From Waterburya sp. (GTDB lineage Bacteria > Cyanobacteriota > Cyanobacteriia > Cyanobacteriales > Xenococcaceae): DNA of 64,000 bases. Below the pieces are notes generated by a model, which worked only from the letters and a program-made list of their open reading frames with translations, made no database searches and was not told the origin of the DNA. Position 1 is the first letter of the stretch. Each line of letters starts with the position of its first letter. This document shows positions 2,646-40,694 of the stretch, piece after piece. Where the stretch lies: assembly GCA_965217895.1 (NCBI GenBank), contig CBDCJV010000002.1, forward strand, positions 4,512,001 to 4,576,000, given 5' to 3'. The position numbers were made by a program, and so were the translations under genes.

Positions 2646-4153
2646 ATTCTATGTGATTTTGGTCAGCTATTTGAACCTTCAGTTAATCAGTCAACAGTAG
2701 CTCGTTGGGAGAAGGGGGAGCAAACTCCAGACAGAATACATTTTCCTAAAATTGCTTCATTGATTAATATGTCTTTTGAAGAGTTGATGGAATTTATTAA
2801 AAAACCAACATTTAGCTTTAACGAACTGGATATAGAAAATAAAACTCTTACTTATAACAAACGGCATTTCTCAATACTGAAAAAAGGAGCAAGAGCTTGG
2901 AATAGCTGGAGAAAGAGAAATCCTCATATTATTCCACAGTTATCAAGTATTTACTTAGAATCTGAAAAATATGGTGATTTAAGCGGATATGATTTAGGTC
3001 ATGCTAATTTAGCGGGTTTTCAGGGATTTTTTATATCTATGAGGCATACAAGCCTAGTTGAAGCAAACTTAGAAAGAGCTAATCTTGAGGGAGGTTCTTT
3101 TGATGGAGCAGATTTTTCAAGCGCAAATTTGAAAAATATTAAGATTAAGGATACTAGTTTTTCAAGAGCTATTTTAAGAGAAGCTAATTTAAATGAAGCT
3201 AGTATCTCGGATTCAGATTTCACAGAAGTAACTTTGGAAGAGGCTTATATGGAGAAAATACATCTTTATAATGTTAATCTTTCAGGAGCAAATTTAAAGC
3301 AAGCCAATCTTAGCTGCGCCAATCTGTTTGATGTACAGCTAGTAGAAGCTAATTTAAATCGAGCTTCTCTTGAGAAAGCTGTCATGAATAAATGTTCTAT
3401 TTTTGGAACTACATTTATAAAAACTAATTTTAGTGAAGTAAAAGCTAACGATGTATATATTTCCTCACAAGGAATGAAAGGAGTTCCTATAAGTGATTTA
3501 ACTTTAGCACAATATGCTTGTCTTAAACAATGCGATTCTCCTTTAACTAAAAAGTTTATTAATATTTGTAATTTGGAAGGTGAAATTATTAGCTATTCCA
3601 AGATTCTTATCGATAAATATGGAGGCTATAGATTAGATGCAAGGGAAATTTCAGCTTGTTTAATAATTCCAATGAAGTTAATGAAGTTAACGAGCTTCCT
3701 CTTGTTCAGATGTATAAAGATAATAGTTGTTTTTATATTGAATTTTATCCAAATTACAATAATAAGGATTGTAAATCATTAAATAGATACAAAGCTAGAA
3801 AAATCTTAGAAATTAAAAACAACTTAATACAAAGTGATTTGAGAATTGAAGATTTAAATGTTATAAAAAATACGTTAGAAAAACAAACTAAAGAATTTAA
3901 TCGTTTGATAATAATTGCTATAAAAATTCTGGAATCAACCAAACAAAAAAAGTTTGTTGGTCAGGAATATATAATTGAAGAAATAAATGAGGAAATTATT
4001 ATTTGCGAAATAGTTAAAGATATTGAGAATGATGAAGAAGAAGAAATACTTAGAGGTAAGCTAGCTAATAATCAATTTGAAATTCTTAGATCTTGCCTAG
4101 TTGATAGGAATATTGTCGATCTTCAAGATATACTAATAAATCTTGTGACCTAG
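2646..4153 (+). pseudogene. XRE-HTH/pentapeptide-repeat fusion protein, lacking its start and probably frameshifted (ORFs 2760-3782 and 3656-4153)
   Basis: In frame upstream of 2760: FGQLFEPSVNQSTVARWEKGEQTPD (XRE helix), bounded by TGA at 2643. Many ANLxx pentapeptides. Overlapping second ORF suggests a frameshift. Confidence 0.65.
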
Positions 4154-26928: not shown

Positions 26929-27210
26929 ATGGTAAATGAAATGACGTTATCTCAGGACAGATTGGAGCAACATATTGTGATTGAAGATGACCGTGCTGGT
27001 TTAGATCCTGCTACGATTAAAAGAGCGATCGCCGATAATTTGTTCTATCTTCAGGGTAAGTCGGCTAAAACCGCATCTTTGAATGATTATTATTTGGCTT
27101 TGGCTTATACAATTCGCGATCGCCTGATGCCAGGTTGGTTAGCGACAGCGCAAACTTATTTAGCTTCAAACATCAAGACAGTTTGTTATTTTTCTGCCGA
27201 GTACCGATGA
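26929..27210 (+). pseudogene. glgP: Glycogen phosphorylase N-terminal stub
   Basis: IADNLFYLQGK...DYYLALAYTIRDRL...KTVCYFSAE, then similarity ends. Confidence 0.85.
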
Positions 27211-30200
27211 TGGTTATGCAGTAAGTGATGCTTCTATCGTCGAGATTAACGTCAGCGATGCACCGTTAACTAGCCTTGATTTTGTCGAGCGTAATCCGAA
27301 GTTAGAGGTAGGCGATCGGGTTGAATTGCAGGTGATTGCTGACTTTGCCGACCAAAAAGATGTAATTGTTCCTGGGGATTATCTCAACTGGAGTTCTGAG
27401 TCTGAAGCTGTGGCAACGGTCAGCGATCGCGGAGTAGTCACTGGTGTTAGTAACGGCACTACGATCTTTAGCATCGAACGTAACGGCTTGAGTGCTGTAA
27501 CCGCTTCTAGAGTCGGTCAAGCAGGATTTCCTGGCACCGAAGCTGAATTAAATACGGCGATCGCTGAATACTATGGCTTGGATGTTTATCCCGATGCTAG
27601 TACTTTGACTATTGGCACAGAGAGACAAATATTGGTCGGCTATGCCTATGTAGGAGATTATCGTAGTGGAAGTATTTATATAGTCGATATTGATTCAACA
27701 TCGGATACCTATCATCAGGTAGTTGAAATAATTAATATTGCCGATGCAGCCAACGGATTCCATTCACTAGCAGTTAGCAGCAATGGTAAGAAGTTATTTG
27801 CTAGCGTGCCTAGTGGTAATTCAAAAGCAGATAAAGGCAAAGTTTATGTCTTCAATATTGATTCTGAAGACAAGCCCAAAGAATTAGAGAATGAACCAGG
27901 ACAATTTGAACCCAATACCCAGAAATGGCATGATGTTATTGGCGTGCTAGAAGTAGCCAAAGGAGTTGAGGGAATATCCGCCACACCAGATCCTAACGTG
28001 ATGGTGTTTACTAATCGCTTTGAGGATTTTCAAGGTTTTGGTCGGATTAAAATTACTGGTGACGAGCCGACTCAATTTGCTGCCAGTGTTAGCTATACAG
28101 CTCTAGGATTGGGAAGTACAGGGGATTACTTTGATGTTAACGAAGGATTCGATACTGTTGTTACTAGTGATGGTAAATATGCCTTCGTTGCAGGTAGAAA
28201 TGCTCGTAATTTTGGTAGTGGTGCGCCTAGTATTGATGGACCAAAAACGGAAAATGCCAAGCTGGTTGCTGCCACCAGACCGATTCCCAATGCTTGGACC
28301 AGCAGTATTACTATTTCTAGCGACGATAAGTATCTATTTGCATCCTATCCAGGGGTAGGTGGGGTTTATGCTTGGGACGTAGAGGAGATGATCTCGACTA
28401 TTGACGATCCTAGTTCTTATCAAATCGATCATCGGGGACGAGGAGTAGCTTCTCCAGTTTTTCTTCCTTCTACACAAAAAAGTGCCACTAAAGCCGATTT
28501 CAGTAGTGTCCCGATTGATAATATTAACCCTGATATTACCATCGCTTCAGATCTACAGTTGACTAAAGACAATTTGCGGTTTGATGGTTTTGAATATGTC
28601 AATGATGTGGAGTTTGGTGTACCTGAAGATTCAACTCGCGCACCATTAACCATAGGTGGTAATCCTTGGTCGGTGGCAAATGTAAATCATCGCGATTGGT
28701 TAGAACTAGAAAATGAACAATGGAAAGAAATAGAATATAGTGCGACATCTGATGATGATGGTAATGTAACGATTAAACCAACATGGGTTGATTCATCTTC
28801 TGCTAATATCCCAGTTCCTCCAACTTCTCTCGATGAAACAGTTTCAACCTCAAAACTACAAACTTTACCAGAACTCGAACCAATATTCGTACCAGCGGGC
28901 GAACCAGCACCACCCATCAAAATACCCAGGATAAAACCAGGTACAGGTTTAGTAATTGGAATTGGGCTTGCCGTACTTACTTGGTTGATTACAACCAGTG
29001 ATGTAGTCGAGGTTGAATTGAACATCAGTACTTCGCCTTCTGGAGAGGGTCTATTTAGTGAAGAAGATGATTTTGTTCAACGACCACCTGCTGCGGGGAT
29101 TAAAGAGGACGATTTAAAAACTACTAAAAATGGAATTGATGACTATAATCCCAATCGAATTTATAGTGCAAAATGGATATCCGCTGGTCCTGGCAACGAT
29201 TTAGGAAGATGGCTAGTAAATGGAAAACTTATTGAAGCTTTATTACCTCCTACTGTTTTCCCGTTTGCACATTTACTAAATCTGACTGCTGGACAAAAGT
29301 ACTTCTATGGTGTGCGAGCGAAAAGTCAAACCAAGGGTTGGGAAACTGAAAATGGTGGGGAATTCACCTTACCGTTAGCTGATGTTAAAGGTCGTAATGA
29401 TATTGGTGGCATACCACTTCCAGGGGGAGCAACAGCCTATAGTAGCGTCACCTTTATTACTCCCGAAGCAAGTGCTTTGGATCCTCAAGGTTTAGTAAAA
29501 GCCAATGCAATCGCTCAAAAGATAGTTACGGATATTGAAGGCGACGCTGACGGAGAAAACACTGTTAATGGAACGGTTTTAAAATACGATCCCGATACTG
29601 GAAAATGGGATAAAGTTTCAGGCGATCGCGGATTGGGTAAACCGCTAGTTTTGATAGCTGATTGGTCTCAAGATTCTGTTGCCGAAAATTATAATTCTGG
29701 TTTTGCTGAGGGTGCAGCCGATAGTTTATTTGCCTCACTAGTAGAAGAAAATAGTGTCTTTAAGGGGGTAAATGAAGATGCGTTATTTGATTCTCCATTC
29801 CACTTTATCGGTATGGGCAGAGGTACGGTAGTAAATAGCGAAATTATCCAAAGGTTGGGAACTTTCTATCCTAAGCCTGTCGAGCCAGATAATTTTGAAG
29901 ATCCTAATTACAAGAACCGAAATAAGTTTCCCGATCTGCAAATGACCACCATCGATCCTAACGATTTCAAGCAGTCAAATATTGCAGGATTGTCATTAAA
30001 TAATTTCTACGACCCAGCAATTCAGGTTTGGGATAATGTTACTTACGCAGATAATTACTATCAAACTGCTAGCTCTAGTAATCCTAGAGGCAGACATATT
30101 AGTAATACAATTCCCGAATATTTTCTACCACCTGACAGCACTAACTATATCAACGAACCAGATTTGTCAGTTCATTTAGGTGGTTATGAAGAAAACAGCA

Positions 30201-32137
30201 ATCAGCTTCTCGAACGCAGTCGAGTTGGATTTACTCCCGATAGGGCAGAACAGCCTGCTGATGGCAAGAATCCCCATAACAGAACCGATACTTGGTATGG
30301 CGGTACGGTTAATGTCAGTTGGGATAGAGATAATAATCCCTTTAACGCACCGATACACCGCCGAAAAGGAGACTTTAGTGATACTGAACTCAACCCCGAC
30401 CCCAATTATCTCTATCCTTGGTATACGCCTACTCATATTCCCAATCTAGAAGTGGGAGATGAAAAAGCGCAGTGGGAAGGAATTGGTACGGGTTGGTACT
30501 ATTCTCCTCAAGGTGGTGGTTATAACAGACGTGCTTTGACTTTGGATTCTCCACAGTCGGTTACAGCCTCTGATAATTCTCCACGTACTCCATTAGGGTA
30601 TGACAATACAATAGAAGCTAGACAACGTGGTGATTTTGCCGTTCCTACTTTGTTTGATGGGAATTTTGACGCGATTTATGCCAAAAATCCTGCTCAACCT
30701 ATTCCTGGTTGGACTAATGATGGTTCTGAAAAGAATTTGCAAAAGTACCTGAAATCTGGAGTGGCTGACAATCAGAGTTATGCTTTGGAGTTGGGTAACG
30801 GTTTAGATGAGATTACTCATAATCCTTTTGTTGTTCCTGATTGGGGTACTTTACGTTTCGATATTCATACTGGAGACGTACCAGCAACTTCAACTGATAG
30901 GTTACAGGTTACTATACAAGCAACGGATGGTAGTGAAGTTTCAACTCAAATTGAGCTTCAAGAGGCTGGAGGCACAGCAGGTCAATATTTGAATGATACA
31001 CGTCGAATTAGCTATGGAGAAACTGGTTTTGAAACCTTTACTTTAGATGTACCAGATGAATTACGGGGTAAAGTTGCAACTCTAAAATTTGAGCTTACAG
31101 GTGGTCAAGAGGTTTATTTAGACAATGTTTTCTTTAAGAGTCAACATTTATTGTTTGGTAATCCATCGGAAGCTAGAAAACCAGATAATCCAGAATTAAA
31201 TAAAAACAATTATCTACTAGAAAAACCTCAATATGCTGTTTCATATAATGACAGTACTAAACAGCCAAATTTAGTAAGTTGGCAAGTAAATCAGGATTGG
31301 GTAGGAACAGGCAGAGATGCTGATTGGGGACAAGATGAAACTCTACCTGATGACTGGTATAAAGTTACGGATAGTGATTACAAAGCAACAAACTTAAATA
31401 ATCTTTTTGATGATTTTGATTTATTTGGGAATCCCCTATTTGAGGCTCCAGGAACTCCTCAATTAGTATCTTATAATCGAGGACATTTAACTCCTAATCG
31501 GGCTCGAAATCGCAATCGTAAAGATTCGCAATCGACTTTCTTATTTAGTAATGCTTTGCCCCAACATCCTAATGCAAATCAAGGTGGTTCTCCTTGGTTT
31601 AATCTTGAAGAAGATTTAAGAGATATTTATGTTGATAGAAATAACGATGAACTTTATATTACCGCAGGTTCATTAGGAACAAAAACTCAGCCAGTAGAAG
31701 GTGGAATACCTGGAGAAACCGAACCCGTCCAAATTCCGTTACCAAATGATAACATTAGCACTCCAAATGAAAAATTTATCAATGTACCTCAATACATTTG
31801 GCAATTCGTTTTAGTTTTAGACCAACCAGGATACGGTTTAGAAGATGTAATTGATGGAACAACAACAGCAGAAGCCATTGCTGTAATGATGCCTAACTAT
31901 AAATATAGTGATGCGATGACTACTCAACCCATCACTTTACCTACTGGCAAAGTAGTTAATATTAACTCTTTCGATGATTGGAAAAATTGGGAAACATGGC
32001 GAGTAAATGGTAACGATCTCGAATCGGTTACTGGCTATAATTTTCTATCTAATTTGCCAGAGTTATTACAAGATAATATTGAAGAAGCTGGGGTAAGTCC
32101 TTCATTGACAGCACCTTTATTAGCAGAATCGGCAGAA

Positions 32138-32701
32138 TTATCCACAATTGAGATTCCGAATACTACCGTCGGGCATAATAGTATCGCAAAAAATAGCACG
32201 ATCAGTGTCAACATCCCATTCAACACCAGTCAAATCAGTCTTGATGAAAATAGCGTTGGTCAAGGTAACGTGTTCTATTCTGGCTCTACGCAAAGTAGCC
32301 TTGGTGAAATTAACTCCGTGGAAAGTACACTCCATGATGACAGTATCGTCCATATTGGCTCTGTAAAAGATAGCTCCACGGACAAAAGACTCAGAGAAAT
32401 GAGTTTCACTCAAGTCGGCATCGATGAAAATTCCTTCATAAATTTGAGTCCCGCTCAAGTCAGCCCTACTCAAATTAGCTCCAGTGAAGTTGACTTCTTC
32501 GAGTTTAGCCCCACTGAGGTAGGCGTTGGTGAAATTGCTCCCACTCAGATTAGCGTTCCTAAAATCAGCCCCACTGAGGTAGGCGTTGGTGAAATTGCTC
32601 CCACTCAGATTAGCGTTCCTAAAATCAGCCCGAATAATTCTAATCTCACTAAAATCTCTTTCGCCAGCAGCATATCTCCTGAGCAATTCTTCTCTGTCCA
32701 T
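32138..32701 (-). CDS. Pentapeptide-repeat protein nested antisense in the giant ORF
   Basis: Typical N-cap MDREELLRRYAAGERDF, A(D/N)LSG repeats, C-cap AIFCDTIMPDGSIRN. AGGTG RBS 7 nt upstream of ATG. Confidence 0.88.
   Translation of the reverse strand: MDREELLRRYAAGERDFSEIRIIRADFRNANLSGSNFTNAYLSGADFRNANLSGSNFTNAYLSGAKLEEVNFTGANLSRADLSGTQIYEGIFIDADLSETHFSESFVRGAIFYRANMDDTVIMECTFHGVNFTKATLRRARIEHVTLTNAIFIKTDLTGVEWDVDTDRAIFCDTIMPDGSIRNLNCG
32507..32626. repeat. Perfect 60-bp tandem duplication
   Basis: AGCCCCACTGAGGTAGGCGTTGG...CCTAAAATC twice. Confidence 0.95.
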
Positions 32702-35700
32702 AATTCAACACCTAAAATTACTAATGTACTCAATAATAGCGCAACAAATATCTGGTCAGATTTACTCCAATCAGAAACACAGCTAGATATTGATTTCCAA
32801 ATTACCGACTTACCCAAAGGACAACTAGCGTCAGCTACCATTACTGGCTTTGACGATGCTGGTAAACCCAACGCAGGAACAATCCTCATCGACCATGATG
32901 CCAACGGGATCGGCTGGTTTATTGACGAAACACCACTAGATAATTCAGAATTTACTGCTCAAAATACAGACAGTTACCTACTCGCTGCCACCGAGTCTGA
33001 AGCTGATGGTAAGTACGATCTTCTAACTACCGTTCTCCACGAACTGGCTCACCTGTACGGTTTTATAGAAGGGTATTCAGGGTTTGACGATTTTGTGTCT
33101 GGGGAAAGGGAAAAGGTAAAAGGTGAAGGGAAAGAATCTGATACCTTTACCCCTGACCCCTTAACCTTTAACCAAGGCGAAACCTTATCTTTTGATGGCG
33201 AACACCTAGATAAATCCGTTCATCCTTACGATCTATTGAATACCCATCTCGCGCCAGGAATGCGTAAACTACCTTCCGAGCTAGACGTACAAATACTACA
33301 GGCTATTCTGGCTGAGTCAGACGGGGCGACTTTAAGACGGGGCGACGGGGAGAATTTGGAGGCATCTTTAACTTCAGATCCCTTGCTAGCTATCAATAAC
33401 GGCGACTTTGAGATATCTGACACCACTACCGATAGCTTTGCCTGGGATACTCGTGGTGCTAGCGGTATAGAAAACGGTCAAGCAGTACTGACAGAAAATT
33501 CTCCATTCTTAAGTAACTTCACCCAAACCTTTACCGTTCCTGAAGAGGCGAAAACAATTCAGTTTAAGTTAATCGAGACTCAACTAGGAGCGAGTGAATT
33601 AGCACCACCCGATGCTTTTGAGGTGGCTTTACTTGATGCCAACACCAATGAATCTCTAGTAACTGATACTGGCTTAACGGAAACAGATTCTCTACTCAAT
33701 ATCCAGAATGACGGCACGGCATACTTTAGCGATAAGGTAAGAATCGGCGGAGCAACATCGGGAGACATTATCGGACTCGATCGATCCCGCACCGTTACCG
33801 TAGATATCTCCGACCTTACTCCAGGTACAGAAGCCACACTCTACTTCGACCTGCTTGGCTTTGGTGATGTAGATAGCCGCGTGGTAATTGATGATGTACG
33901 CCTATCAGACCAAAATCTCTTACCGCCTACGGTAGTAGACGACACTGCTACGACTACTCAAGGACAATCTACCATTATTGATATCCTTGCCAATGATACA
34001 GACGATGATGGCGCGATCGCAACTGACTCAATTCAAATCGCCACCGAACCTACTAACGGTACAGTAACCGTTAATGATGACGGCACTGTCTCTTATACTC
34101 CAAGCGATCGCTTTGTTGGTACAGACAGCTTTACCTATACAGTCCAAGATAACGATACTCAATCCTCCGAAGCCGCTACGGTTAACATCACGGTAGAAAA
34201 TGCTGCGCCAGAGATTACCGAGGTTCAGATTCCCGATAACATTACTGAAGGAGATGAAGTTACACTGAAGGCGATCGCAACTGATGCAGGTAATGATGAA
34301 TTGACCTACACTTGGGAGTTTGGTGATGGCAGTCAAGCTGAGGGTCAAAGTGTAAATCGCACTTATGCAAACAACGGCACCTATGCAGGTTCGGTTACGG
34401 TAACAGATACCTTTGGCGGTAGCAATACCCAAACCTTTAAAGTAGTGGTTGAAAATGCTGCACCAGTAGTTGATGCAGGAGAAGATCGGACTGTTGATGA
34501 AGGAAGCAGTGTAGCCTTTACTGGCAGCTTTACCGATGCTGGCATCAACGATACCCACACAGTTACCTGGGACTTTGGCGATGGCTCTAATCAATTATCA
34601 ATAAACAATGAACAATTATCAATAGAACATACTTACACTGATGATGGGGAGTATATAGCGACTTATACAGTTACAGATAATGACGGTGCGGTAAGTAGCG
34701 ATGAGCTTACAGTTACCGTAAACAATGTAGCTCCTACCATTACTAATCTTACAGGTGATAGTTCAGTCAAAGAGGGCGATCGCGCCAACTTCTCTGCTTC
34801 TGCTACAGATCCAGGCTCTGACGAGCTATCTTACACTTGGGACTTCGGTGATGGAGAAACTGCTACAGGCACAGACGTTACTCACGCCTTTGCTCAAAAT
34901 GGCAACTATACCGTAACTGCTACAGTCACCGACGATGATGGAGCTTTTACAAATTCTACTCTTGAAGTAGTTGTCAATAATGTCGCTCCAGTAATTGAAA
35001 GCTTGACTGGTGATACAGAGGTTAATGAGGGCGATGTTGCTAACTTTAGCGCGATCGCCATTGATTCTGGCAACGATGAATTAACCTACAGTTGGGACTT
35101 CGGCGATGATAGCGAGGCTGTAACTGGTCGAGATGTAAATCATACCTTTTTTGATAACGGCGACTATATAGTAACCCTAACTGTTACAGATTCTGATGGA
35201 GCTTCCACTAGTCAAACATTAGATGTGGCAGTAAGTAATATAGCTCCTACTATTACCGAAGCCAGTGGCGATCGCATTATTAATGAAGGCGACACAGCTA
35301 GTTTTACTGCATCTGCGACCGACCCTGGCAATGACACCTTGACCTACACCTGGAATTTAGCTGACGGTACGGAATTAACGGGATCAAATGTATCTCATAC
35401 CTTCATCGAAGATGGGGAATATGATGTCAATCTCATCGTCACCGATGATGATGGTGCGACCGCCACACAGACTCTAACTATCACCGTCAATAACCTTGCT
35501 CCTGTAGTTAATGCAGGAGAAGATCGAGTTGGTGATGAGGGTAGCCCAGTCGCATTCAATGCCAGCTTTAGCGATCCTGGTATAGAAGATACTCATACAA
35601 TTGCCTGGGACTTCGGCGATGGTAATACAGTTACCGACACCTTGGATCCTACTCACGTTTATATCAACAATGGCGAATATGATGTCAGTCTGACTATTAC

Positions 35701-36720
35701 TGACGATGAAGGAGCAAGCACCACCAGTACTCTAAAGGTCACGGTAAATAACGTTACCCCGACGATTACATCTTTGACTGGTGATACAGAAATAAATGAA
35801 GGTGATGTGGCGAACTTTAGTGCCGTAGCTACTGACCCAGGAGCCGACGAACTTACATACACTTGGGACTTCGGCGATGGCACTACCCCAATAAACGGTC
35901 AAAACGCTACTTATCAATATCTGCAAGATGGGATATATAATACTACCCTTACCGTCTCAGATTCAGACGGTGCATCTACCAGCCAAACTACTCAAATTAC
36001 GGTCAATAATCTCCCTCCTACCGTCTCAGCTGGCAATAATCAAACGGTATACATCGGCGAAGCCGTCAACTTCAACGGCACCTTTGGCGATCGCGGTTCT
36101 CTCGATACCCACACCGTTACCTGGAACTTTGGTGACAACACCAGCACCAGCGCTACCAACAATCCCACCCATACCTATACGGCAGAGGGAATTTACACGG
36201 TTAATTACAGCGTCAGGGATGACAGGAATGCCAGTAGCAGCGATACCCTACAGCTAACGGTATTGAAGCTACCCACCCTATCGGTCAATGACATCAGCAT
36301 TGTCGAAGGGGATAGTGGCACGGCTAATGCCCTATTTACCGTTAGTCTAAATGAAGCCAGTACCCGTGCCGTGAAGGTTAATTACAGTACGGCTAACGGT
36401 ACGGCTACTGCTGGCTCTGACTATACAGCCACTTCAGGTACGCTGACCTTCAATCCAGGACAAACCAGTCAAACTGTAGCTGTTTCCGTCACAGGCGATC
36501 GCCTAGATGAAATCGATGAAAACTTCCGTCTCAATCTCACCAGTCCAGTTAATGCGACTATCGCCGATAACAGGGGCATGGCGACGATTATCGATAACGA
36601 TCCCGCTCCTAGCTTAACTATTAATGACTCCACTATTACCGAAGGCGACAATGGTACGAGCAATCTCACCTTTACCGTTAACCTCTCTGGGGCTAGTGGT
36701 AAAACCGTTACGGCTAATTA

Positions 36721-37813
36721 AGTGGTCAAGCAAAATTAATTACACTGGTAAATAGAAAGTCAAAACGAGAGTGAAAAGAGTGCATTTAGAGGGAAAACTG
36801 AGTTCAGAAACAGTCAAAATATTATGGCGATTGTATCGTCAACACCGCGATTAGAGAGGCTTTCTGACCGAAAGCCTCTCTCGCGGCCAAAGTAAAAACT
36901 ATCAAGTAAGAGCTAGAGCGCACTGTATATTGCTGATCGACTCAAGATACGAGCTGGAAGAACTAATTGAAATCTTTGGAGTTAGCCGAAAAACAATATA
37001 CAACTGGAAAAATAACTGGTCAAAGTACAAATTAGTAGGTTTGTATAATCGGCTTGGAAGAGGAAGAAAAGAAATTTTTAGTACGCCACAAAAACAGCAG
37101 ATTAAAAAGTGGGTTACACAAAATCCGAAAAACCTTAAGCAGGTAATTGAAAAAATCAGAGAAGAATGGGGAATAGTTGCTAGCAAAGACACAGTTAAAA
37201 GAATTCTAAAATGTCTGGCAATGAAATGGAAGAGAGTGAGAAAAGTAACCAATGGGCAACCAGACAAAAAGATGTACGAAGTCAAAAAGCAAATTCTCAA
37301 AGCTTTACAAAGGTTATCACAGCAGGGAAGTATAGATTTAAGCTATTTGGACGAAACAGGATTCTGTCTCACTCCTTATGTTCCCTACGCTTGGCAAGAA
37401 ACAAAACAGCAAGTGGGAATAGATAGCAAACAAAGTAAACGACTAAATATTCTAGGTCTTTTAAATAGAGAAAACGAGTTATATTCTTACATTAGTGAAG
37501 TAGTAATTAAATTTTTGGATTTATATGTTCAACAAATCAACAAATCCACGGTAGTAGTTTTAGACAATGCCCCCATTCATCGCTCACTAGCATTTCGGAA
37601 AAAGATAGCACAATGGCGTAAGCAGAAAATGGAAATCTTTTGGTTGCCAACCTATTCTCCTCAACTGAACTTAATAGAAATTTTGTGGCGATTTATGAAA
37701 TATGAATGGATCGAAGCTCAAGCTTACACAAGCTGGAAGCATTTAACTCATCACGTCGAACATATTTTGCGAGATTTCGGCGATCGCTATGTAATTAATT
37801 TTGCATAGGTACT
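36721..37813 (+). mobile_element. IS630-family element; transposase N-terminus interrupted by a 48-bp hairpin
   Basis: IR core GCAAAATTAATTAC at both ends, TA flanks. YLDETGF, VLDNAPIH, LPTYSPQLNLIE. Confidence 0.9.
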
Positions 37814-37815
37814 TA

Positions 37816-39989
37816 TAGTAGGTAATCCCTCGACCACGATTAAAATATTTACTGTTTGCCCCTGCATTGAGAGTCTGTACGGGAACGACAAAGCGCCTTC
37901 CATCGGCGGAAGCTACTTCACCACCACCCCAGCTTTGGACGATGGAAATCTTAGTTTGGGCATCAACTAACCGCGCATTAGCTTTGGTGACAGTATCAGG
38001 GCGAAAATAATTTTGTTCCACCCAGGATAAGCGTCCTCTCGTAAGTGCAGGAATTCTTTTTCTCACCAAGGGCGACAGTCCAATATTACAACCTTGAGCA
38101 ATAAGCACCGCACAGATGCTAGTTGAAAGATCTTTAACCTTGGCAAAACTTTCATTAAGATGGGTAAATTCGTCCATAAAACCCGTCTTGGCATTGATTT
38201 CCAACAAGACTTCGGGAAGATCGACTTGAGGTAATAGAGATTCAACTTTATCCCTCAAATTTAGATAACTTTTTGGGTCATCTAACTTATCCAGATTTCT
38301 GATGGTAAGGGTTTCTTTACCCTTGAGGTCTACTTCGATTCTGACTTCTGAGTTTTGAGGTAGGTTTGACGCAGTTTTAGTATAGGCTTGGTTTAACTGC
38401 TCCTGTAATACTTTCAGTTCTGGTTCTGGCTTGGAATTGAGTTCTAAAGTCCGACAGACCGATGTTCGTGCTGATTCCCATGCTTTTCCTTTGAGGAGCT
38501 TGGCACGAGGATTACTCCATCTTTCTCCCTTGGAAACAAACAAGTCGCGACGGCGTAATCCTTCCAATAACTGTCCGAGAACGCAGAAAGTGTATGCCCG
38601 ACGATCAATATCACCATCAGAGTTGACTACCCAAACAGCCCATTTTTTATCAACTATCTTTAAAGGCGCAGCATCCATTTTAGGGTTTCTTTTACCTTCA
38701 ATAGATTGGAGGAATTGCCATGCTTCGAGGGTTTTTTGACCAGCCTGATTACCTTCAAAATCAATGATTGAAAGTAGTTTGGGAAGAAAGCGACGAACCG
38801 AACGCCATTGCTTCAATAACTCGTCATAATAATTATCTTCTGGGGGACGAGCTATATCTTCGACATCAGTAATAGCTGAACTCAACTGTTCTGGAGTTAG
38901 CCGCTGCCAAACCTCTTCTCTAACTTGAGTATCTTCGGTAGCAGGATTAAGAAGAACTCTACAGGCTGTGGCTAGCTGCAACGCAGCAGCGTCTAGATCC
39001 CTGAGAGTTCTTAGGCGGTTTTTTCTCCCATCTGCTTGAGACTTAGCTAAAATATCTTTGACTAATAAATTCAGAACATCAAGAGCATCATCAATGGCGA
39101 TCGCTTCCATAACGTAAGCCCAGGCTACTAAAGTGGCAATTCTTCTTTCGGTAGACATTCGAGCAATCGCTTGCGCTCTGAGGGTAAAAGCAGTTTTAGA
39201 AAGAGCCTTGAAACGAATTGGTGGTATTTTACCTACATCTAATTTGTTGATGCCCAAAGCGCGAACTGTAACTAGACGATTTAAGGCATTAACCAAACTG
39301 GGCGCACTTTTCCTAGTAGGTGATTTTCTTAATTGTTCGAGAGGAGTAGTTCTGACTTTTTCTCCCACCACAATCAATGCTTCTAAATTCTCTATTTGCT
39401 TGGAATTGGGAAGCTTGGAGAGGATTTTCCAAGTGCGGTTAGCTACTCTTTCTCTAACTGCTGATATTAGTCGAGATAATACCGTTACTCCTGGCAGGAA
39501 GATTTTCTGTTCGACTAATCTAGCAGTGGTCAAATCAAACATCATTGAAGGACTTTCTCCACCTATCCAAGCCCTTTGATATAACCAACGAACTAAACGC
39601 CAGTGTCCTGGCTGCTCACTGAAATCACGATAGCCATAATGCCTCTTGATTACTAAGATATGTTCCCAGTGGGTATTGGTACGAAGCAAATATTGTGGCA
39701 AACAACTTATATCCACAATTTCTAGCTGAGATGCCAAATAATCAATCACTCCTTGAGGGACATCAATGGGATCGAGCAAAAACGTTCCTAAAAAGCGAAC
39801 CGTACACAATTGAATAGCAAAACCGAGTCGATTGTAGTCACCACGACGTTTCTGGACTAATTGTTTGGCAGCATCGTCAAGATGAAAGTAATGAGCTAAT
39901 TGAACAGAGGTTGGTTCGCCAACATAACGCCCATAACTATGTTGTTGTTCCGATGTAAGAAACCGAGATGACAAGCCCGAAAAATCCAA
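37816..39989 (-). pseudogene. tnpA: Tn3-family transposase truncated by IS630
   Basis: NRLGFAIQLCTVRFLG, WGGGEVASADG...GRGITYY; cut at about 725 aa, before the rest of the DDE domain. Confidence 0.9.
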
Positions 39990-40079
39990 TAATGTATCAT
40001 TAAAACTATAGTCTATTTGGTACGCTTAAAAGTAATGACACCGTAAGGGTTTTAACCGCCTTGGGACAGGAGGGTTTAA

Positions 40080-40694
40080 ATGGTACAGAAAGTGGCTATT
40101 TACTGTCGGGTTTCAACTACAGATCAATCTTGTTCTCGTCAGGAACTAGATCTAAAAGCTTATGCCAAGAAAGCAGGTTATGAAGTCGTTGGTGTTTGGA
40201 AAGAAACTGCTTCAGGTAGTAAAAATAATCGCCTTGAAAGAAAACAAGTTATGATATTAGCCCAGACTCGCAAAATTGATGGAGTATTAGTTACAGAACT
40301 AACTCGCTGGGGTCGCTCAACTATCGACCTAATTAGCACTTTACAGGATTTAGCTCACTGGGGGGTTTCGGTGATAGCTACGACGGGAATTCAGTTCGAT
40401 TTAACTACCCCTCAAGGAAAATTAATTGCTTCGGTAATGGCTTCATTGGCTGAGTTTGAAAGGGATTTAGTCAGAGAAAGAGTTTGTTCTGGCTTGGCTG
40501 CTGCGAAGACTAAGGGTAAAAAATTAGGTCGAAAACCAGGACAGAGAGTTAAAGCCGATAAGTTTGCCCCTAAAGTTTTGCAGATGGTTACGGAGGGTCA
40601 TTCTTATCGACATATAGCTCAGTCACTTCATTTAAGTAAGACAACTGTGAATGAAATTGTCAAACGTCATAGACGCGCAAATGTAACCCTCTAG
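40080..40694 (+). CDS. Serine resolvase/recombinase of the Tn3 element
   Basis: AIYCRVST, LTRWGRS, AEFERDLVRERV, C-terminal HTH; divergent from tnpA. Confidence 0.92.
   Translation: MVQKVAIYCRVSTTDQSCSRQELDLKAYAKKAGYEVVGVWKETASGSKNNRLERKQVMILAQTRKIDGVLVTELTRWGRSTIDLISTLQDLAHWGVSVIATTGIQFDLTTPQGKLIASVMASLAEFERDLVRERVCSGLAAAKTKGKKLGRKPGQRVKADKFAPKVLQMVTEGHSYRHIAQSLHLSKTTVNEIVKRHRRANVTL

Follow-up and report, generated by a model that had tools for sequence, protein, structure and literature searches.

A pentapeptide-repeat gene nested antisense in a giant cyanobacterial exoprotein gene: a candidate immunity partner for an internal nuclease

Can two genes share one stretch of DNA on opposite strands, and why should an inhibitor-like gene lie on the back of a nuclease-bearing one? 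The question is raised by a 64,000-nucleotide (nt) stretch of the cyanobacterium Waterburya sp. (assembly GCA_965217895.1, contig CBDCJV010000002.1, positions 4,512,001 to 4,576,000), here called the window. A complete gene for a pentapeptide-repeat protein (PRP; 32138-32701, minus strand) lies wholly within a giant adhesin-like open reading frame (ORF; 27326-36721, plus strand) at codon register offset 0, and its stop falls about 55 nt past a NucA-type nuclease domain encoded by the giant frame. A first-pass annotation, made from the sequence alone, had read this as an overlapping nuclease/inhibitor module. We are close to certain that the overlap is real, and we consider an immunity role for the PRP very probable if plain self-protection is counted too. 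More specifically, we propose, with a probability of about three in four, that the PRP would be the cognate cytoplasmic immunity protein of the nuclease within an interbacterial toxin cassette.

Two open frames on opposite strands

The first-pass annotation described a nested antisense ORF with terminal caps and an AGGTG ribosome-binding site (RBS), none of whose 14 Leu codons was TTA or CTA. Both descriptions are accurate. The coordinates and register agree, Pfam finds the at least eight tandem A(D/N)LXX-type repeats that define the PRP superfamily, and AlphaFold2 predicts, at a mean predicted local distance difference test (pLDDT) score of 97.4, an N-cap helix, a beta-helix, quadrilateral and right-handed, of about eight coils with a five-residue strand period, and a C-terminal hairpin. 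Foldseek matches to the model (HetL, Np275/276, AlbG, Qnr and MfpA) are all PRPs, and the protein is net acidic (27 D/E, 19 K/R). Its Leu codons are TTG (7), CTC (5) and CTG (2), and its Ser codons do not include TCA. The ordinary PRP gene at 2760-3782 holds 17 TTA, 2 CTA and 8 TCA codons, and the genome's 25 other PRP stretches hold 2-36 of these three codons each. The probability that the nested gene would lack all three is about 2e-6 by genome codon frequency and 10^-5.5 given its own Leu and Ser content. A promoter scan around the gene was uninformative, with one site where 3.2 were expected and no minus-strand site.

For a wider comparison, near-copies more than 80% identical and PRPs shorter than 115 amino acids (aa) were removed. 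This left 24 nested PRPs, with a median identity of 36%, and 34 from a terminal form of the locus, in which the giant frame stops after the nuclease and the PRP gene is convergent. Because nested PRPs lack sense stops by definition, the tests lie in the controls. Terminal PRPs carry 1-27 in-register antisense stops each and are never free of them (0/34); with their codon usage, the probability that a nested gene would have no stops ranges from 10^-2.2 to 10^-7.1 per gene. The depletion of TTA, CTA and TCA that the first-pass annotation suggested looking for is complete in the giant frame, at 0 of 4365 overlap codons versus 988 of 17707 flank codons. An RBS-like 4-mer stands before 18 of the 24 nested genes; in control windows the rate is 264 of 907 (29%).

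The signature extends beyond stops. Nested PRPs avoid synonymous codons that would give Cys (GCA, ACA), Tyr (GTA, ATA), Lys or Arg in the giant protein, and the giant proteins contain 0.0% Cys. GCA is used at 7/422 in nested PRPs, 107/806 in terminal PRPs and 1837/6243 in giant genes of the same loci; the corresponding figures for ACA are 5/241, 94/419 and 1920/8387. GTA stands at 8/191 and ATA at 16/254 in nested PRPs. The same giant genes use these four codons at 16-29%, and terminal PRPs use them at 13-22%. That A-ending codons are avoided in general was considered and rejected, since GGA, AGA, AAA and CAA are not depleted. General avoidance of TA, CA and CG dinucleotides was likewise rejected: they reach 0.13, 0.21 and 0.22 of expectation at codon positions 2-3 and lie near expectation (0.86, 1.19 and 0.70) across codon junctions.

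Substitution rates separate the two frames. In eight disjoint close pairs, several of which include PRPs without a nuclease, single-difference codons (uncorrected, 120 multi-difference codons omitted) gave per-site rates of 0.030 for changes altering both products, 0.069 for the PRP only, 0.237 for the spacer only and 0.32 for neither. We take the PRP to be the constrained partner because of the difference between 0.069 and 0.237. By this measure it is strongly constrained. The sense reading, a tolerant spacer, has to stay open and to suit an acidic, Cys-free exoprotein. The earlier claim that both strands are under selection therefore stands firmly for the PRP and only weakly for the sense linker, where selection is limited to stops and to the avoidance of Cys, Tyr, Arg and Lys. 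A perfect 60-nt tandem duplication in the window added one PRP coil and 20 spacer residues with both frames preserved, and indels in the nested loci keep both frames. The small gene is fully embedded, with both frames open beyond chance. The spacer itself has no match in Pfam and no usable match in Atlas, and AlphaFold2 (20 alignment rows, residues 1-220) scores it at pLDDT 24-34 per block. The idea that it forms a solenoid of its own, at pLDDT about 30, is unsupported.

Spread and exchange of the cassette

The arrangement is not peculiar to the window. A PRP-blind search was anchored on a conserved domain upstream of the nuclease (the 'pre' domain, which matches 0 Pfam families) and drew on the best 80 of 134 relatives, at 72 loci. 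Counting as a module the 'pre' domain plus at least 550 nt of nuclease, we obtained 82 distinct modules, window included: 24 nested, 50 terminal, 4 with a co-directional PRP, 2 lacking a PRP in the next 900 nt and 2 at the end of a contig. A PRP thus follows the nuclease within 900 nt in 78 of 80 scorable modules, and it is antisense in 74 of those 78. The PRP of the remaining two lies past an inserted ORF that is transposase-like by eye. All 24 nested modules are in register 0, in line with the proposed check that an intact antisense ORF should follow the nuclease in homologs, and 20 of them continue in frame into the same HExxH peptidase-like domain that follows the overlap in the window. 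When that domain was used as the anchor (40 of 50 places fetched, from 401 genomes), an in-register antisense PRP lay just upstream in 37 of 40 loci, a broken one in 1 and none in 2. The two sets overlap in part, and kin within them are not independent.

By record titles, nested modules occur in 15 named genera, including Acaryochloris, Calothrix, Chamaesiphon, Nostoc, Prochloron and Xenococcus, and some are on plasmids; terminal forms with a named family belong to Microcoleaceae or Oscillatoriaceae. Its occurrence is patchy, in 10 of 401 genomes sampled across the class. Giants that share the backbone and lack the nuclease also lack the nested PRP (L050, L051, L199, L236). Every 'pre'-anchored module examined carries a NucA-type domain, and no other enzyme replacing the nuclease together with another antisense gene was found among the loci examined. 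Two arrangements deserve separate mention. One 8564-aa ORF (L036/L037, G101:C83) contains two nuclease domains that differ from each other, and behind each of them lies a separate nested antisense PRP. At L068, L082, L084 and L087 the PRP lies on the nuclease's strand, in the ordinary toxin-immunity order, so that one family shows three arrangements.

On quick trees the nested and terminal states are intermixed. A single origin of either state is not supported, as starred branches force at least four changes on the 'pre'-domain tree or at least six on the nuclease tree. Those trees give no direction; we regard repeated nested-to-terminal truncation as the likelier course because the loss of read-through needs one stop, whereas its gain needs about ten stops purged.

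The borders of the exchanged unit can be read from a contig of reads from the same habitat: its match to the window breaks off where the nuclease starts (31165) and resumes at the start of the PRP (32698). Four pairs of loci differ little in the 'pre' domain (distance 0.07-0.24) and greatly in nuclease (0.59-0.76) and PRP (0.70-0.80), and ten pairs show the reverse. With the 'pre' domain held fixed, the partial correlation of PRP and nuclease distances is 0.51; that of PRP and 'pre' domain is 0.13. These comparisons show that nuclease and PRP are exchanged as one cassette between constant flanks, with variation confined to one enzyme family. Terminal loci also hold spare cassettes in arrays and as many as seven PRPs in a row behind a single nuclease, and nested lineages hold copies of the PRP and a peptidase stub without a full nuclease.

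One such orphan PRP lies in the Waterburya genome itself (C2:2355498-2355953, minus strand, locus L004), without nuclease or peptidase. It is 79% identical to the nested PRP of L218 and retains the nested codon signature, with two stops now in the sense frame; the PRP therefore outlives the frame around it. By eye, this orphan sits between short palindrome-like repeats beside a transposase-like ORF, surroundings that suggest repeat-assisted capture of immunity genes.

The nuclease profile finds 2O3B and 1ZM8 as best PDB matches (E=1e-69), and the predicted catalytic set is intact: R112, G113 and H114 (RGH at 31478-31486, within NRGH from 31475), N145 and E155. Across 58 homologues G113 and H114 are invariant and N145 and E155 nearly so. 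Giant-borne nucleases form a clade with long branches, separate from seven stand-alone NucA proteins.

Co-folding of nuclease, PRP and Mg, one of the checks proposed at the outset, places the PRP over the active site with a score of 0.84 versus 0.00 for the best of three controls. Of 157 solved complexes 116 reach that mark, as do 2 of 215 mismatched pairs; these counts are only a rough guide here. The runs share at least 88% of contacts, with partner pLDDT of at least 91. One edge of the helix (PRP residues 23-24, 43-44, 63-64, 83-86, 103-106, 123-126, 143-146 and 163-165) meets nuclease residues N111-G113, N145-G148, F152 and E156. The model supports PRP binding over the nuclease active site. 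No nuclease-PRP complex is among the PDB matches listed. A conserved acidic ladder on the predicted face was considered and rejected, only columns 124 and 144 being acidic in more than half of the homologues, in repeat alignments that are unreliable.

Proposed mechanism and alternatives

We propose the following sequence of events. The giant would be exported as an adhesin-like carrier, probably by type I secretion; genes for PpiC, a C39-ABC transporter and HlyD follow one complete giant. The nuclease would then be freed by the neighbouring HExxH peptidase at an A-x-L-L-A motif just before the overlap. A loose form of this motif occurs in 21 of 24 nested gaps, and the motif also precedes the peptidase in giants without a nuclease. 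If cleavage occurs there, the nested product would equal the terminal one. The freed nuclease may act against competing cells, with the PRP, predicted to lay one beta-helix face across the active site, shielding the producer and its kin. Orphan PRPs could shield against the nucleases of other strains. Polymorphic cassettes must bring their own immunity gene in the same recombination event (PMC3482391; for this and the other papers cited, statements refer to the portions of text available). For an internal toxin flanked by needed domains, nesting on the opposite strand would satisfy this requirement with the frame unbroken. In this way nesting would hold an internal toxin and its immunity gene together in one recombination unit, and the giant frame would cross that gene as a loose spacer.

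Several observations weigh against this proposal. No receptor-binding domain or uptake route into target cells was recognised, and the window's own giant gene is interrupted at both ends. The co-folding controls were unrelated proteins, neither other PRPs nor non-cognate nucleases, and the co-travel of PRP and nuclease is also expected from simple adjacency. The genome holds an unlinked NuiA, the known type of NucA inhibitor. The spacer lacks a confident predicted fold, its residues are nearly free (0.237 per site, where synonymous sites downstream of the overlap give 0.267 in the eight close pairs), and terminal gaps hold no read-through relic (A-x-L-L-A, stricter pattern, 0/34). Finally, the sense frame is open in 33 of 34 loci scored without a full nuclease. 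Contig ends account for some of these; recent capture or another constraint would have to explain the others.

The nearest alternative is that the PRP protects its own cell from a surface nuclease that works on extracellular DNA, for nutrition, biofilm remodelling or the exclusion of phage and DNA, with no delivery into rivals. Anabaena NucA, of the same family, is secreted and paired with a constitutive cytosolic inhibitor, NuiA (PMC13522737), and the carrier, built of Ig, PKD, CARDB and Calx-beta repeats, has no recognised uptake domain. Self-protection of this kind does not, however, predict long nuclease branches relative to stand-alone NucA, nor cassette swaps, strings of up to seven PRPs or orphans without a nuclease, and we think it unlikely. 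Less likely still is a real overlap in which the PRP has another job, such as protecting gyrase or a DNA-binding protein or serving the giant as a chaperone, and owes its nuclease linkage to history. The known functions of PRPs are gyrase protection by DNA mimicry or else not understood (PMC8145042), and correlated distances can arise from adjacency alone; but co-folding sets the PRP on the active site, giants without the nuclease also lack the PRP, and the PRP diverges as fast as the nuclease between conserved flanks.

The most sceptical reading, that one frame only is a gene and the other a by-product of repeats or codon bias, draws on the low-complexity sense product, unfolded in prediction, and on the orphan loci that keep the sense frame open. 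We give it very little credence. It is at odds with the in-register antisense stops in all 34 terminal PRPs and in the genome's 25 other PRP stretches, with a codon depletion that is frame-specific and reaches Cys, Tyr and Arg codons, with indels that spare both frames, and with a PRP that has a start, an RBS, caps, a pLDDT of 97 and purifying selection. We retain the cognate immunity proposal. The inhibitory role suggested in the first-pass annotation has gained support from linkage, co-travel, orphan PRPs and co-folding, and it is still an inference.

The window locus and its relation to known systems

The features of the locus are collected in Table 1.

Table 1. Features in and around the giant ORF (window positions)
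Feature	Position	Strand	Remarks
Short ORF upstream of giant	26941..27210	+	Joined at ~27204 to the giant's cut 5' end
Giant adhesin-like ORF	27164..36721	+	3185 codons between stops; 3131 aa when counted from TTG 27326
Conserved 'pre' domain upstream of nuclease	30626..31144	+	From alignment; anchor of the PRP-blind search
NucA-type nuclease (His-Me finger, Endonuclease_NS)	31184..32083	+	PF01223, residues 1291-1579 of giant, E=1e-37; G+C 0.35, below its flanks (0.42-0.46)
A-x-L-L-A motif, candidate processing site	32111..32128	+	L12/A14 nearly invariant in alignment
PRP gene, 187 aa, predicted nuclease inhibitor	32138..32701	-	PF00805, E=1e-38, four stretches
Sense reading of the overlap: S/I/Q/T/E-rich spacer	32138..32701	+	Five-residue periodicity; alignment
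Perfect 60-nt tandem duplication	32507..32631	.	Tandem Repeats Finder: period 60, 2.1 copies, 100%
AGGTG, RBS-like, for PRP	32709..32713	-	7 nt before ATG; within the giant's coding sequence
HExxH zinc-metallopeptidase-like 'down' domain, candidate processing peptidase	32753..33400	+	HELAH 33038-33052
Ig-like (Big_9), eight PKD and Calx-beta repeats	33923..36721	+	Ended by insertion sequence
Insertion sequence with DDE_3 transposase	36719..37816	+	Truncates the giant gene at its 3' end

The 9.5-kb plus-strand frame of the first-pass annotation is indeed open; it is not an intact gene, being cut near 27204 and by the insertion sequence (IS) at 36719. Compared with DNA contigs from other strains and samples (four runs), the window ORF is a remnant, cut at both ends, of a family of proteins of 5,000-13,000 aa; the open frames of relatives measure 8564, 10437, 10641, 10783 and 13403 aa. 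Contigs of another sample diverge from the window near 27204, and homology to the 8564-aa relative begins only at that relative's residue ~5198. In other contigs the Calx-beta repeats extend beyond 36720, and contigs of other strains cross both breaks. The lost ends were not found elsewhere in the genome by tblastn, nor was a second copy of the 26941-27210 DNA by blastn. The short ORF joined to the 5' break resembles, by eye, the N-terminus of a glycogen phosphorylase. At least five near-identical full copies of the IS occur in the genome. It opens a mobile-element cluster (36719-40694) with a cut Tn3-family transposase (37743-39989) and a resolvase (40080-40694). As the giant gene is a remnant here, this copy probably acts as no more than an immunity gene and spare cassette. 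Two further antisense ORFs within the giant, 34028-34594 (minus strand, 188 aa) and 28687-29025 (minus strand, 112 aa), look by eye like repeat shadows.

The H and E of the HExxH domain are invariant in the alignment. The window's copy has no Pfam match, and a distant homologue matches Peptidase_M10 weakly (E=3e-5). A second, more distant HExxH copy stands near the N-terminus of complete giants (L130:562-801, L131:6521-6733). In four metagenome contigs (L150, L151, L160, L162) the same HExxH domain of giant proteins is directly preceded by an RHS core plus a variable region (by eye HINT-like and nuclease-like in L160), and a PRP is absent; other antisense ORFs of these RHS-linked distant giants were viewed by eye only. 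They raise the possibility that internal toxins with this peptidase behind them are a more general pattern.

The earlier remark that no NuiA lies in the window is correct for the window but not for the genome, whose sole copy (PF07924, C2:719112-719495) is 3.8 Mb from the locus and adjoins neither this nuclease nor a stand-alone NucA-like gene (C2:4027769-4028449). The nuclease belongs to the same family as NucA of Anabaena sp. PCC 7120 (2O3B, 1ZM8), whose NuiA is likewise a cytosolic inhibitor of an exported nuclease (PMC13522737). Unlike in that pair, the nuclease here is a fast-evolving domain of a giant, and its partner is a beta-helix PRP instead of NuiA. The predicted right-handed quadrilateral beta-helix and net acidity are shared with MfpA, Qnr, AlbG, McbG, HetL and Np275/276; the known targets of the DNA mimics among them (MfpA, Qnr, AlbG and McbG) are topoisomerases. 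Cyanobacterial PRP functions were described in a 2021 review as almost completely unknown, and the words 'immunity' and 'antisense' are absent from its available text (PMC8145042).

The closest parallel is with polymorphic toxin systems, in particular Tox-NucA (Zhang et al. 2012, PMC3482391), which share a large repeat-rich carrier, a variable nuclease, an adjacent variable small gene that travels with it, arrays of spare cassettes, orphan genes and an associated HExxH peptidase. As there, a variable toxin is exchanged by recombination on a constant carrier, and spare cassettes and orphan immunity genes are present. Candidate signs of an export route and of processing are the type I secretion genes after one giant, the Cys-free giants and the putative peptidase domain. 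Unlike there, the nested nuclease is internal, its partner gene is antisense within the ORF, and the peptidase comes after the nuclease. The toxin is C-terminal in the 50 terminal and 4 co-directional modules and not at the window locus or in the nested modules, 24 in all, and an immunity gene downstream on the same strand is found in 4 of 78 modules, the other 74 being antisense. The nested form is therefore not a plain member of these systems. That survey lists Imm36, Imm-SUKH and Imm-NTF2 as immunity proteins of Tox-NucA and does not list cyanobacteria for it, and its available text does not mention 'pentapeptide'.

Other PRPs have been placed beside toxins: YjbI-like PRP genes adjoin GH-E nuclease toxins (PMC5714182), and a putative antitoxin of a type VII secretion system toxin is annotated as a PRP (bioRxiv 10.64898/2026.07.13.738213), in neither case nested or against NucA. 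A NucA-trypsin system (PMC7159879) is different and has no bearing here. The overlap itself recalls olg1 in tle3 of Pseudomonas aeruginosa (PMC8850804), a long ORF in frame -1 (directly antisense) of a toxin gene with stop-codon depletion. Olg1 is described as taxonomically restricted and as having arisen by overprinting, and it has translation evidence; the embedded PRP, known here from sequence, comes from an old folded family, persists in at least 15 genera with an identity of about 36%, and finds a predicted partner in the gene that hosts it. No description of a nested nuclease/PRP arrangement was found in the full-text literature, with subscription papers and the supplement of PMC3482391 largely outside that search. 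In summary, we propose that the system works like a polymorphic toxin-immunity system and that its gene architecture may be without precedent.

Taken at its broadest, the evidence leads us to favour, with some reserve, a phylum-wide cyanobacterial conflict system that carries the immunity gene on the back of the toxin gene, with an internal, protease-released nuclease and a DNA-mimic PRP swapped as a locked cassette in exoproteins of 5,000-13,000 residues. To our knowledge, antisense genes that are long and wholly nested are regarded as rare in bacteria, and of such a pair gene callers discard one member. If the proposal is true, few bacterial gene pairs known to be fully nested would be older or more widespread. 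The natural non-overlapping and orphan controls make this pair an unusually clean model for the origin, upkeep and loss of overlap. It would illustrate how an internal toxin can still carry its own immunity gene, and it would add nuclease inhibitors of a new class, beta-helix DNA mimics directed at NucA-type enzymes. For the cyanobacteria, it would give a biochemical function to a share of their unexplained pentapeptide proteins and would point to a little-studied interbacterial weapon of mat- and biofilm-forming species.

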